From the IMG/VR virus record IMGVR_UViG_2657245439_000017: a DNA stretch of 38,307 nt; one strand, 5' to 3'. The notes beneath the pieces were generated by a model that worked only from the letters and a program-made list of their open reading frames with translations, had not been told where the DNA came from and searched no databases. A program made the position numbers and the translations under genes. Below are positions 24,596-35,673 of this stretch, piece after piece (positions within the stretch are counted from its first letter, which is position 1; each line of letters begins with the position of its first letter). This DNA is from a virus. Lineage: Duplodnaviria; Heunggongvirae; Uroviricota; Caudoviricetes.

Positions 24596-24725
24596 GTGTG
24601 TATCCTCGTTTGGTGGAGACAGCATCACAAATACAGGGCGCAAAGGATTTTAAAGCGCGTTAAGAGAGCCGGGGATACGGGATGTGCAGGATAAACGATG
24701 AATTATTCACAGAGGAGAATACGAT

Positions 24726-25202
24726 ATGACGCACACACTGAATCCGGTCATCACTGTCACTGTGTCCGGTCCTGTGGGCAGCGGTAAAAGTTACGTACTG
24801 GCGCGGATAGAAGAGATGGTGAAACAGGAACTCGGAAACAGCGTCATTGTCGATGCTGCTGACGTGGAGAATGAGCGCCGTATGAATGGCGAAGATCTGA
24901 CGACCTGGCAGAAGCCACGGGGTGGCACAGTGATCAGGCTAGAGGAATACACGGGACAGGGCCTGTTGTCATACGGCGAGGAGCGTATCTGTCGGACGAA
25001 TGAGCTGCTGGATGTTATATGCCCCACGGGCCGGCAACCCTGGATACTGCCCGATGCACTGCATGCCACCATTGCGGCACTGATGACAGTTTACGATCAG
25101 GAGCTGCTCATGAAGGAGTTACGTAAACTCACCGGTCAGCCAACAGAATGTTGTTCGTCTCCGAAGTACGGCAAACAGGAAAACGCCCCGGATAATCCTT
25201 AA
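24726..25202 (+). CDS. Small P-loop NTPase-like protein (158 aa), function unknown
   Basis: Walker A GPVGSGKS near N-terminus, hydrophobic-D stretch SVIVDAAD as possible Walker B; strong RBS AGAGGAGAA before ATG; opposite strand to flanking operons. Confidence 0.65.
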   Translation: MTHTLNPVITVTVSGPVGSGKSYVLARIEEMVKQELGNSVIVDAADVENERRMNGEDLTTWQKPRGGTVIRLEEYTGQGLLSYGEERICRTNELLDVICPTGRQPWILPDALHATIAALMTVYDQELLMKELRKLTGQPTECCSSPKYGKQENAPDNP

Positions 25203-25221
25203 GATACCTCCTGAACAGAAA

Positions 25222-25237
25222 CAGCCCTGAAGGGCTG
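25222..25237 (-). terminator. Hairpin between convergent genes (CAGCCCT-GA-AGGGCTG), candidate terminator for the repressor-linked operon
   Basis: Starts 3 nt downstream of the minus-strand gene stop; followed on minus strand by TTTCTGTTC; also 20 nt after plus-strand P-loop gene stop. Confidence 0.4.
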
Positions 25238-25239
25238 CA

Positions 25240-25821
25240 CTAAAAAAAGAAGTGTATTATTGCCCAAACAGCTATAACGATGATTCCCAGCCCAAGAGCC
25301 GATTCTAACTTATCTTTGGCAGTCATTTTTACTGTTGTAGCGGGCGCAGGTAAGTCTTGCTGCTGTGGATTTTCTGTTAGTTGTTTACGAGAAGAAACAT
25401 CGCCCCTATTAGTTTGCTTCATGTTGATTACAGATGCGTTATGGGCATTATCAGCAGCAATTGACTGAAGTTTTACAAAAGTTTTTGAATCTGTTTTAGC
25501 CAGAAGTAACCTATTTCCCGTAAACATTGCCTTAAAAGTGATAGTTTTTTTCGTCTTGTCCGCCGCACCAAGCAAACCTCCAATGACCAACCCTGCACCA
25601 CCAAAGATTAATCCACCAAGCAAACCTGCGCCTGCCGCCTTACCTATACGGCTTTCCTCTTCACTATCCGCAAGTTCAATCGATAAAAGCTCTTCTTTCA
25701 GATTTAATACAATATTTTCAGGAAAGCCTTGTTTTGGTTTTTTGGCAAACACGATGGTACCGAACCCCATGCTTGCCCACCCTTTAGGAAAACTTCCTGC
25801 GATAACCTGAATCCCTGCCAT
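25240..25821 (-). CDS. Glycine-zipper membrane protein with C-terminal TM anchor (candidate membrane effector)
   Basis: GAGLLGGLIFGGAGLVIGGLLGA GxxxG-type zipper; C-terminal LGLGIIVIAVWAIIHFFF; start likely ATG at 25819-25821 (AAGGTG 6 nt upstream) rather than GTG at 25830. Confidence 0.65.
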   Translation of the reverse strand: MAGIQVIAGSFPKGWASMGFGTIVFAKKPKQGFPENIVLNLKEELLSIELADSEEESRIGKAAGAGLLGGLIFGGAGLVIGGLLGAADKTKKTITFKAMFTGNRLLLAKTDSKTFVKLQSIAADNAHNASVINMKQTNRGDVSSRKQLTENPQQQDLPAPATTVKMTAKDKLESALGLGIIVIAVWAIIHFFF

Positions 25822-25911
25822 GTTCATCACCTTTTACATTAAAATTTCAGAACGCAGCATGATGCCGCCTTTGTCTTTTTTCTGATCCCATGGTAATTCA
25901 GCTGTTATTTT

Positions 25912-33528: not shown

Positions 33529-33542
33529 CCGGGAGGCATTCA

Positions 33543-33758
33543 ATGGCTGACATACTCAGGGAAATCACCGCATGGACACTGATTCTTACTGGCCTGGCGA
33601 CATGCCTCAGTGCGGGGGCAGCCCTGGCTGCCCTGCTGATGCACATAACAACACAGTGGTTATGGGAAAAGCTTAAAGCAGCATACAGCCTGAAAGAGCT
33701 GTCCGACGCTGTCCGGGCATGGAAACGGCAGAAAAATACCGGAGATACAGAACAATGA
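33543..33758 (+). CDS. Small membrane protein (71 aa, one TM)
   Basis: TM WTLILTGLATCLSAGAALAALLM; GGGAGG RBS. Confidence 0.5.
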   Translation: MADILREITAWTLILTGLATCLSAGAALAALLMHITTQWLWEKLKAAYSLKELSDAVRAWKRQKNTGDTEQ

Positions 33759-34438
33759 CAGACCAGAATAAACACATTGAGAAACTGAAAAAGTTGCTGG
33801 CGCTGGCCGCATCCGGCAACCCGCACGAGGCCGCTCTGGCACTGCGCCGAGCCCGTAAACTGATGGATGTTCACGGCATCACACATTCCGACATTGCTAT
33901 GAGTGATATTGATGAAACCATCAGTCATTACTGGCCGACAGGCAGTCTCCGTCCACCGCGCTACATGCTGGGCCTGATGAACATCATCCGCGAGGCATTT
34001 GGTGTTAACTCCATCATTCACCCCGGCACGCATCCGTCTGTGGGGTTCTACGGTAACCGGGAACGAGCGGCACTGGCTGCGTACACCTGGGAAGTGCTGG
34101 TCCGCCAACTGAAAAAGGCGCGTCAGCAGTATATCAGCGCACAGAACAAAAGAATAAAAAACGCCACCCGTACCAGCCGTGGAAACCAGTTTGCTGAAGG
34201 CTGGGTACTGGCCGTTATCAGTGAAATACAGTCCTTTGCCCTGACCGATGATGAGCGTGAACTGATGCAACAGTGGCTGGAACATAAATACCCGCAAACG
34301 CAAACCACCAGGGCGCGTAAACCGGGAAGAAGCCGCAATGGCGACGCCTCGCGCTATGCGGGGTTTCGTGAAGGGCAGAACGTCAGACTGCACCGCCCGG
34401 TCAGTGGGCAGGAACAACAGAAACTGGAGGCCAGATGA
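33755..34438 (+). CDS. Hypothetical early protein (DUF2786-like N-terminal helix motif)
   Basis: ATG 33755 with GGAG RBS (track ORF starts earlier at 33719); N-terminal IEKLKKLLALAASGNPHEAALALRRARKLM motif common in phage/plasmid proteins. Confidence 0.55.
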   Translation: MTDQNKHIEKLKKLLALAASGNPHEAALALRRARKLMDVHGITHSDIAMSDIDETISHYWPTGSLRPPRYMLGLMNIIREAFGVNSIIHPGTHPSVGFYGNRERAALAAYTWEVLVRQLKKARQQYISAQNKRIKNATRTSRGNQFAEGWVLAVISEIQSFALTDDERELMQQWLEHKYPQTQTTRARKPGRSRNGDASRYAGFREGQNVRLHRPVSGQEQQKLEAR

Positions 34439-34665
34439 TTACGCTATCAGGTAACAGCCGGAAATTAAAAGCCTGCCGAATATCTGCCAGATACCTTTTT
34501 GCCCGCGCCTTTTTTAAGAACGTCAGGCCGGGGATCACAATTGGTGTTATTGCCGGACGCGAACAGGTTGAAAAATACATGTCAGGTGCATGGTGGAATA
34601 ACGACCCTGTCATTGCTGCCCGTAATATTCATATCAGTTGGGGGGATATTCAGAATGACGGCTGA
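34435..34665 (+). CDS. Hypothetical small protein (76 aa)
   Basis: ATG with CTGGAGG RBS, overlaps upstream stop. Confidence 0.45.
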   Translation: MITLSGNSRKLKACRISARYLFARAFFKNVRPGITIGVIAGREQVEKYMSGAWWNNDPVIAARNIHISWGDIQNDG

Positions 34666-34870
34666 ATCTGTTGTATGTGCCCTGTTCTGGTATTGTTTTG
34701 TCGGTTGGTGTACTGCTGAACTGCACCGCCGTTCAGGGTTTTATTCACGTTACAGTGGTGCCGGCTACTGGATTAGCTGGTCGGTGATGTTCCTGTGCTG
34801 GCCTGTGGCGCTTCCTTTATATGTCGATTATATCGGTGGCGCAGGTAAAAGGAGCAACGATGATGACTAA
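34655..34870 (+). CDS. Small Trp/Cys-rich membrane protein (71 aa)
   Basis: ATG 34655 after GGGGGGA; hydrophobic segments VVCALFWYCFVGW and WISWSVMFLCWPVALPLYV. Confidence 0.45.
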   Translation: MTAESVVCALFWYCFVGWCTAELHRRSGFYSRYSGAGYWISWSVMFLCWPVALPLYVDYIGGAGKRSNDDD

Positions 34871-35312
34871 ACAACGTCTTATCCAGCTCATTCATATTGC
34901 CCGTAATGAACTGGGTATGGATGAAGACACCTACCGCCAGATGTTACAGGGGCTGACCGGTAAAGCCTCAACCAAAGGAATGGATACCACACAACTAAAC
35001 TGCGTGCTGGAATCCATGAAAAGGAAAGGCTTTCGCGTTAAGCCTGCCGGAAAAGCCAGCTCCGGTTTACCGCTGGATAACCATCCGCAGTCCAGGAAAA
35101 TCCGTGCGCTATGGCTTGAAATGGCTGCTGCCGGCATTGTTCGTGACCGTTCAGAAAATGCATTAGCGCGGTGGATCAAGCGGGAAACGGGCATCAGCGC
35201 CCTGCGCTGGCTCAATACTGAACAGGCAAGCAGTGTTATTGAGAAACTGAAGAAGTGGCAGCACAGAGCTGCGGGAGTAAAACATGAGCGACCTGAATCA
35301 GTTTCGAAGTAA
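34860..35312 (+). CDS. GemA-like regulatory protein (Mu gp16 family)
   Basis: N-terminus KQRLIQLIHIARNELGMDEDTYRQML matches Mu GemA as recalled; AGGAG RBS before ATG 34860. Confidence 0.75.
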   Translation: MMTKQRLIQLIHIARNELGMDEDTYRQMLQGLTGKASTKGMDTTQLNCVLESMKRKGFRVKPAGKASSGLPLDNHPQSRKIRALWLEMAAAGIVRDRSENALARWIKRETGISALRWLNTEQASSVIEKLKKWQHRAAGVKHERPESVSK

Positions 35313-35673
35313 AGGGCCGGAACTCCTGGTGGAACTGGCACAGCATACCTCTGAGACCGTTCGCGAGATTATTGATATTGAGCCCGCAATTGCCGACCAG
35401 ATTGGTCAGGCCGTCGCGAACCGCATGATGCAGGTCTGGGGCGGGCAAAACGTTTATTTCCCGATGGGCATGGTATGGAAGGTCAGTCAGCGCGACCGGG
35501 AAATCTTCAGGGAGTTTAACGGACGTAACCACCATGAACTGGCCCGCAAATTTGGTGTTTCGCTTCAGTGGGTCTACAGCGTGGTTAAGCGGGTAAGAAA
35601 AGAAGAACTGGATCGGATGCAGGGCAAGCTATTTGCTGATGAACCCGATGTAGATACGGAGAAAAAAGAGTAA
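35284..35673 (+). CDS. Mor/C-family transcriptional activator of middle/late genes
   Basis: 129 aa; pattern GGQNVYFP ... FNGRNHHELARKFGVSLQWVYSVVKRVR matches Mor/C family C-terminal HTH. Confidence 0.8.
   Translation: MSDLNQFRSKGPELLVELAQHTSETVREIIDIEPAIADQIGQAVANRMMQVWGGQNVYFPMGMVWKVSQRDREIFREFNGRNHHELARKFGVSLQWVYSVVKRVRKEELDRMQGKLFADEPDVDTEKKE

Follow-up and report, generated by a model that had tools for sequence, protein, structure and literature searches.

A probable BcepMu-type transposable prophage of Escherichia coli whose early and late arms diverge from a central immunity region

We analysed a 38,307-nucleotide stretch of DNA (hereafter the window), deposited as the IMG/VR virus record IMGVR_UViG_2657245439_000017, whose positions 1–35834 hold about 35.8 kb of a transposable prophage of about 36.65 kb, the rest lying beyond the left edge of the window. 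In the map of open reading frames (ORFs), a leftward block of genes extends from ~24643 to 823 and a rightward block from 27407 to 35673 (Table 1), with a stretch of low GC content between them (0.43–0.46, against 0.52–0.60 elsewhere). The leftward genes include the repressor and all those for lysis, head and tail, and the rightward ones lead from a small Ner-like helix-turn-helix (HTH) protein (27407) to the activator Mor, with 161 bp between the stop codon of mor and the prophage end at 35834. An earlier note, made from the letters alone, had described this very arrangement, with the late region running leftward and the early region rightward from the immunity region and the Mor/C activator next to the prophage end, and the gene map and homology searches bear it out. 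The part singled out in that note, 24644–35673, takes in the immunity region and all of the early arm.

The rightward block encodes a DDE transposase of 589 residues (TnpA), which the earlier note had judged to be unlike MuA. In Pfam searches TnpA matched the rve core only (35.8 bits), and none of the four domains (DDE_2, HTH_Tnp_Mu_1, HTH_Tnp_Mu_2 and Mu-transpos_C) that were matched by MuA as a positive control. Similarity to MuA was likewise absent by BLASTP (E = 0.48), by hhalign with a five-sequence profile (probability 0.1%) and by tblastn of MuA on the window (E = 9.5), in agreement with that judgement. A distant link to MuA was also considered and rejected: sequence and profile searches of PDB chains gave weak retroviral-integrase (rve) matches, never MuA. 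TnpA is instead 98.8% identical to its counterpart in Escherichia phage PhiKM (94–99% when the transposase of Phi06_2974 B is included), 68.7% identical to BcepMu gp09 over 98% of the protein and 56.6% identical to B3 TnpA, and its nearest non-phage matches are transposases of the IS481 family. A direct link to Tn552 was sought by tblastn against plasmids, which returned IS481-family matches of ~26% identity, with Staphylococcus absent from the ten most frequent organisms listed; for this reason the Tn552 relationship rests on the literature.

The earlier note had also grouped the B-type ATPase with Gam, GemA and Mor as Mu-like. For the latter three this held, all of them scoring well above the Pfam thresholds. 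The ATPase (TnpB) shares AAA_22 with MuB, but the Phage-MuB_C domain is absent from it in Pfam searches and it has no BLAST similarity to MuB, so that it is Mu-like in a broad sense only; against the PDB it gave generic P-loop matches.

The ends of the element were mapped by comparison with near-identical prophages of E. coli, which lie in different genes (lom in IAI39 and ygcP in 025542-1, with a variant in ssuB of SK1144). The similarity of identical prophages to the window is lost after 35834–35838, and since prophages at other insertion sites diverge from there, we place the right end at ...AATCA, at 35834. The 025542-1 and IAI39 elements begin TGATGCGCC... and finish ...TCTAATCA (TGAT...ATCA termini) and are flanked by 6-bp direct repeats (GATAGC and ATGTGC); the CA terminus is present in the window at 35833–35834, and the TG terminus is seen in these two prophages. 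In 025542-1 the complete element measures 36,653 bp, its invertase gene and left end lying just past window position 1. Two G(A/C)GATAWWT-like copies lie inward from each terminus (~12–20 and ~35–43), in register in the E. coli element, BcepMu and B3, and we take them to be candidate transposase-binding sites. According to the literature, the B3/Tn552 transposase family leaves TG–CA ends and a 6-bp duplication (PMC8705779, PMC2628397). TnpA and TnpB would integrate the element and transpose it replicatively through its TG...CA termini and paired GAGATAWWT sites, leaving 6-bp duplications.

The copy in the window sits in the digH-dosC' intergenic region, downstream of digH, and the host flank (35835–38307) comprises this intergenic sequence, a 3' remnant of dosC (36073–36291) and then dosP. 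E. coli E2348/69 has the same digH-dosC'-dosP arrangement with the site empty, and because only the 3' remnant of dosC is present there and in LF82 as well, the truncation of dosC is older than the phage. A prophage at this site is absent from all 5426 complete E. coli genomes searched. At the left junction of the window copy, host AATACG would be expected to precede TGATGCGCCGCGCGATAAATG, giving a 6-bp AATACG duplication.

Comparison of whole genomes revealed close relatives, all of them colinear with the window. Escherichia phage PhiKM (PQ738613, filed under Bcepmuvirus) is 95–99% identical in nucleotide sequence and keeps the gene order save for a single swapped module. Identity is ~86% for Klebsiella phage KP12 and for Phi06_2974 B, and it reaches 99.3% for the IAI39 prophage and 99.9% for that of 025542-1. 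A prophage in E. coli CE10 is of the same phage type (the relatives span 86–99.9%), and the SK1144 variant is 95–99% identical outside the swapped immunity module and 88% over the lysis region, its transposase gene being 100% identical. Tail-fibre tips differ between these relatives and the window, and the insertion sites are all different. The transposase gene occurs in 637 of the 5426 complete E. coli genomes (~12%), in up to three places per genome and at many insertion sites. KP12 is filed under Vequintavirinae, a label that hides its being a transposable phage.

At the protein level the colinearity extends to the Burkholderia phage BcepMu. Gene-by-gene tblastn placed all conserved genes of the window, from the tail fibre to Mor, in the same order as in BcepMu when the window is read in reverse, at 31–76% amino acid identity. 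This range also holds for the ~30 late genes (tail sheath 76%, tail tube 67%, small terminase 67%, large terminase 63%), and the early identities are 69% for TnpA, 59% for TnpB, 54% for Mor, 44% for GemA and 39% for the repressor. The published maps of BcepMu and B3 likewise have Mor and GemA at the extreme end, followed by B, A and small regulators, with the repressor and the lysis and structural genes on the other strand. Taken together, gene content, order and orientation point very strongly to a BcepMu-type transposable prophage of E. coli, intact-looking and predicted to have a contractile tail, whose arms diverge from a central immunity switch. The earlier note had suggested a mosaic transposable phage nearer to the BcepMu/B3 arrangement than to Mu, and the shared gene order and maps agree with it.

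The low-GC stretch between the arms contains the repressor gene and, overlapping its start, a candidate early promoter, Pe, with a 14-bp palindrome in its spacer (AGAACAATAGTTCT, 27340–27353) as candidate operator. In the lysogen, the repressor would be made leftward together with two membrane proteins and presumably shuts off the strong rightward early promoter. The larger of the two, a 328-residue protein, is presumably made in the lysogen, since its start overlaps the repressor stop (ATGA). On induction, a single early transcript would run rightward through the genes for the Ner-like HTH protein, the IclR-type regulator, the DUF3102 protein, TnpA and TnpB, and continue through Gam, the small ORFs and GemA, with Mor last, at the prophage end. 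The repressor, the two membrane-protein genes and the 3' end of the ORF at 24726–25202 make up a module (25191–27354, GC 0.43–0.46) that is replaced in PhiKM and SK1144 by one with a different repressor type and a Dam methylase. At least two versions of the immunity module thus exist in the E. coli population, which suggests heteroimmune variants of one phage.

The divergent layout places mor far from the late genes, on the opposite strand. Mu Mor and Mu C both match a single ORF in the window, that of mor. The late strand has five non-coding gaps, and four of them contain a sequence box, YTAA-N5-WTTAAWATC; all four copies are intergenic and on that strand. Exactly 19 nt beyond each copy comes a −10-like hexamer (GATGCT, CAAACT, CATACT and AATACT; nAnaCT) and then G, without a good −35. 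Mor- and C-dependent promoters of Mu have a similar architecture, the activator site overlapping a poor −35. We built a position weight matrix (PWM) from the window sites only and ran it on BcepMu, B3 and Mu. The top two hits in BcepMu fell upstream of gp49 and gp32, that is at orthologous positions; by a rough estimate the chance of both falling in target gaps is ~4 in 100,000, sense-strand gaps making up ~0.6% of the positions scanned. The PWM gave nothing meaningful in B3 or Mu. The holin genes of BcepMu and phiE255 also have the box upstream, with the same 19-nt spacing to a hexamer nAAnAT, and in KP12 boxes and hexamers are kept while the spacers have diverged.

Akin to the situation in Mu, Mor is the product of the last gene of the early operon, so that its timing would be preserved, and its distance from the late promoters would matter little for a diffusible activator. 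Made last, Mor would activate four opposite-strand late promoters 10.6–30.4 kb away, which serve the lysis, head, tail and baseplate genes. It is conceivable, at somewhat less than even chances in our estimation, that the phage uses such a two-tier cascade, in which a single Mor/C protein directly switches on four dispersed late promoters through a box conserved among elements of E. coli, Klebsiella and Burkholderia. A description of the box was not found in the literature searched, which did not cover the BcepMu and B3 genome papers of 2004 or the 2018 survey, and it may already be published.

Several observations weigh against this picture of a BcepMu-type phage with a Mor-driven late arm. 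The four matches to the box in the window, against 0.12 expected and with no others even at one mismatch, form a partly circular statistic because the pattern was derived from the same four sites. The same pattern did not find the box upstream of the KP12 lysis genes, and upstream of BcepMu gp41 the box is only weak. Pe and its operator were recognised only by their fit to consensus. Neither the left end nor the invertase gene lies inside the window, so that the element's own target duplication and its completeness are not visible in it; the inducibility of the window copy is putative, and the IAI39 copy has three internal stops. Finally, nucleotide identity to BcepMu is 65–70%, confined to ~10.5 kb of patches in local blastn, and megablast found none. 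The usual ICTV genus criterion is ~70% nucleotide identity over the genome, and identity to the type phage is below it, although the NCBI record still files PhiKM under Bcepmuvirus. Given this patchy identity, the element reads as a BcepMu-like phage and not as a close relative of the type species.

Given its homologies with Mu, the element might instead be a genuine Muvirus (Mu-type) prophage in which a recent rearrangement, or an error of assembly, turned the early region round, and which acquired a foreign transposase secondarily. Gam is 62% identical to Mu Gam, there are Mu homologues of GemA, Mor, the large terminase (49%) and the F protein (48%), and a Mu-like invertible tail-fibre segment is present. 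However, the same layout recurs in independent genomes and isolates (PhiKM, KP12, IAI39, 025542-1, SK1144, BcepMu, phiE255 and B3), nothing in the window matches MuA, MuB, Ner or the Mu repressor c, and the tail genes are P2/BcepMu-like without a match in Mu, with one Mor/C paralogue only; we regard this explanation as refuted in practice and give it next to no credence. Hardly more probable is an element of B3 type (Beetrevirus-like) in place of one of BcepMu type. B3 shares the organisation, and several of the early regulators are closer to those of B3 than of BcepMu (73% vs 45% for the Ner-like protein, 56% vs 33% for the IclR-type regulator and 51% vs 41% for the DUF3102 protein), but for TnpA and TnpB it is BcepMu that is nearer (69% and 59% vs 57% and 55%), and the late-promoter box is present in BcepMu, not in B3. 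Moreover, the tail, sheath, tube and baseplate genes all match BcepMu (up to 76%, the value for the sheath, with 67% for the tube), while tblastn found no B3 match for any tail gene of the window, B3 being a siphovirus.

A defective, non-mobile cryptic remnant, capable of neither transposition nor particle formation, is somewhat easier to entertain but still unlikely. It would accord with a left end not visible in the window, with the three pseudogenes of the IAI39 copy and with an accessory ORF (24726–25202) that is shorter than its PhiKM homologue. Yet all conserved ORFs of the window are full length compared with PhiKM, which was deposited as a phage record. The near-identical copies at many sites, in up to three places in some genomes, argue for recent transposition, and the insertion site of the window is, as stated above, free of prophage in every complete genome searched. 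We favour an intact-looking BcepMu-type prophage.

Table 1. Features of the prophage, by position in the window (+, rightward; −, leftward; identities are those of the proteins).
Feature	Position	Strand	Evidence and remarks
Candidate late-promoter box, upstream of baseplate W-like gene	4911..4928	−	Ortholog upstream of gp49 is the best BcepMu PWM hit
Candidate late-promoter box, upstream of tail-chaperone/tape-measure genes	11262..11279	−	Conserved in KP12
Candidate late-promoter box, upstream of head protease/scaffold gene	17179..17196	−	Ortholog upstream of gp32 is the second-best BcepMu PWM hit
Holin, first gene of leftward lysis/late arm	24245..24643	−	Pfam Holin_2-3, 141 bits; BcepMu gp21 50%
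Candidate late-promoter box, upstream of lysis cassette	24646..24663	−	TTAACGCGCTTTAAAATC, 19 nt, GATGCT; orthologous box upstream of BcepMu gp21
Accessory ORF, Walker-A-like motif, convergent with lysogeny operon	24726..25202	+	phrog_3787, matched at 1–157 of 242
Membrane protein, last gene of repressor operon	25240..25830	−	phrog_12025 (unknown function)
328-residue protein, one predicted membrane span	25912..26898	−	phrog_10002 (unknown function)
Lysogeny repressor (HTH_3/HTH_31 type)	26895..27356	−	Pfam; BcepMu gp17 39%, B3 ORF18 repressor 36%
Candidate early promoter Pe	27331..27359	+	TTGACA-17-CATAAT, 11/12 consensus matches; overlaps repressor start
Ner/Cro-like small HTH protein, first gene of early operon	27407..27595	+	phrog_925; B3 ORF17 73%, BcepMu gp16 45%
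IclR-type winged-helix regulator	27585..27956	+	Pfam HTH_IclR; B3 ORF14 56%, BcepMu gp12 33%; RefSeq relatives start at ~27648
DUF3102 protein, directly upstream of transposase in the phage group	27967..28881	+	Pfam; B3 ORF13 51%, BcepMu gp10 41%
TnpA, DDE (rve) transposase, 589 residues, BcepMu/B3 (Tn552/IS481-related) type	28885..30654	+	Pfam rve
TnpB, AAA_22 ATPase of ExeA/TniB kind	30638..31831	+	Pfam, 73 bits; BcepMu gp08 59%, B3 B 55%; RefSeq relatives start at ~30665
Small early ORFs around Gam, mostly of unknown function	31834..34870	+	Variable semi-essential early region
Gam, host-nuclease inhibitor	32131..32661	+	Pfam Phage_Mu_Gam, 139.6 bits; Mu Gam 62%
GemA	34821..35312	+	Pfam, 139.2 bits; BcepMu gp02 44%, Mu gp16 36%; RefSeq relatives start at ~34863
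Mor, only Mor/C-family activator, last early gene	35284..35673	+	Pfam Mor, 147.8 bits; BcepMu gp01 54%
Right (Mor-side) prophage end	35674..35834	.	Terminates ...ATCA; GAGATAWWT-type repeats at 35813–35824 and 35788–35802

Among the small early ORFs, a DUF2786/DUF7168 protein (33719–34438) is 34% identical to B3 ORF5, and the others, Gam apart, are without counterpart in BcepMu, B3 or Mu; one of them encodes a 64-residue protein with two CxxC pairs (32759–32953). In the leftward arm the holin was taken as the longest ORF, its RefSeq relatives starting at ~24595. For the 328-residue protein of the repressor operon, the flagellar regulator Flk gave a weak match in its N-terminal region, which at 46.6 bits is below the cut-off of 353, and the N-terminus of the 328-residue protein (GDVGNVVSGDVTI) echoes the C-terminus of the repressor (GDVLGNVIKGNVTI). 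A terminator scan found a terminator-like hairpin at 25221–25238, after the second membrane-protein gene. The convergent accessory ORF encodes 158 residues here against 242 in PhiKM, homology to which stops at ~25190, inside the ORF. PADLOC returned no defence-system match for the accessory and small early ORFs beyond generic HTH, and none for the two membrane-protein genes; that the membrane proteins encoded beside the repressor (25240–26898) might be a new exclusion or defence module is a lesser possibility.

Window position 1 falls inside the invertible tail-fibre segment. An 18-nt inverted repeat (64–81 and 1868–1885, 94% complementary) brackets a 1.8-kb segment, 64–1885, that contains an alternative tail-fibre C-terminus (72–428) and assembly protein (432–851), which face the active fibre tip and assembly gene (823–1416, 1416–2870), and identical prophages have a gene for a serine invertase immediately beyond window position 1, on its left. 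By its layout this is a predicted host-range switch like the G segment of Mu. In the gap between the G-like and protease genes, a hairpin (17250–17293, leftward strand) contains TTTATAAAGGCTTTAC, identical in BcepMu despite a large difference in GC content, with TTTATAAA at the same place in B3; its position corresponds to the central gyrase cut site marked in the Mu record, and it could equally be a plain terminator. The tape-measure gene includes a tandem duplication of ~261 bp (8366–8918), with copies ~92% identical. At the same spot the PhiKM record has a sequencing gap and the gene is annotated as partial in SK1144; the repeat probably causes assembly trouble.

The earlier note had asked for a close, colinear match to a characterised phage as the sign of a described genome type, and genome comparison supplied it, with PhiKM at the nucleotide level and BcepMu at the protein level. 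The genome type is thus already described, as well as common in E. coli, and the divergent layout is not new. For BcepMu, two gene clusters and a Tn552-IS1604-type transposase have been reported (PMC2771037), and for BcepMu and B3 alike the divergent arms, the immunity genes at their interface, Mor and GemA at the end and the Tn552-related transposase are published, as are the TG–CA ends and the 6-bp footprint (PMC2771037, PMC5977238, PMC8705779, PMC2628397). As a discovery the arrangement carries little weight, divergent arms, a terminal Mor/GemA pair and a non-MuA transposase being what defines the BcepMu/B3 group. This group has reportedly been described since 2004 and was surveyed in 2018. 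The practical value lies in annotation: active transposable phages able to disrupt host genes are easily missed, because RefSeq labels the transposase merely as ‘integrase catalytic domain-containing protein’ and TnpB as ‘ExeA family protein’, which hides their transposable nature. The mapped ends and the candidate late-promoter box offer handles for studies of regulation and for mini-transposon tools.

Among known systems, Escherichia phage Mu (Muvirus) shares with the window element the transposition lifestyle, a DDE transposase with an AAA+ partner, TG...CA ends and, besides the identities given above for Gam, the large terminase and F, homologues of GemA (36%) and Mor (31%); both have an invertible tail-fibre segment. 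In the Mu record (NC_000929) every gene but the repressor reads one way, with the repressor at one end, which bears out the colinear layout given in the earlier note, whereas the arms of the window element diverge. Mu has two activators (Mor, then C) and the window element one; the MuA domains and the MuB C-terminal domain are both absent from the window proteins, and the Mu tail genes are unrelated to the P2/BcepMu-like tail genes found here. The target duplication of Mu is 5 bp, against the 6 bp measured for the identical E. coli prophages. The element thus lacks the Muvirus traits of a MuA-type transposase, a MuB with Phage-MuB_C, one-strand colinearity and a Mor-then-C cascade.

Pseudomonas phage B3 (Beetrevirus) has the same inverted-early-operon layout, a transposase of the same family (57%) and a related TnpB (55%), and it shares the early regulators, lysis genes, head genes and end repeats with the window. 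Its tail is not shared: the siphovirus structural module that characterises a Beetrevirus is unrelated to that of the window, in which it is absent. B3 also carries Com and Dam genes inside the late region, and the late-promoter box was not detected in it.

BcepMu (NC_005882) and phiE255, of the genus Bcepmuvirus, have two divergent arms with Mor and GemA ending the early arm. The order Ner-like, IclR-like, DUF3102, TnpA, TnpB is that of the window, and the repressor is co-oriented with the holin, SLT endolysin and spanin, followed by a Mu-like head and a P2-like contractile tail in identical order. BcepMu differs in an acyltransferase at its far end, in its small early ORFs and in the genes between repressor and holin; the Mu-type Gam of the window element is without counterpart in the BcepMu and B3 records, and BcepMu is without an inversion system (PMC2771037, PMC2628397), whereas the window element has an invertible tail-fibre segment with a serine invertase. 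The TG...CA ends with two in-register terminal repeats and the late-promoter box at orthologous positions are found in BcepMu as in the window. In its rve transposase and AAA_22 TnpB, its divergent arms, its colinear lysis, head and tail genes and its TG...CA ends with a 6-bp duplication at varied insertion sites (the TG end and the duplications as seen in 025542-1 and IAI39), the element carries the traits of a BcepMu-like phage.

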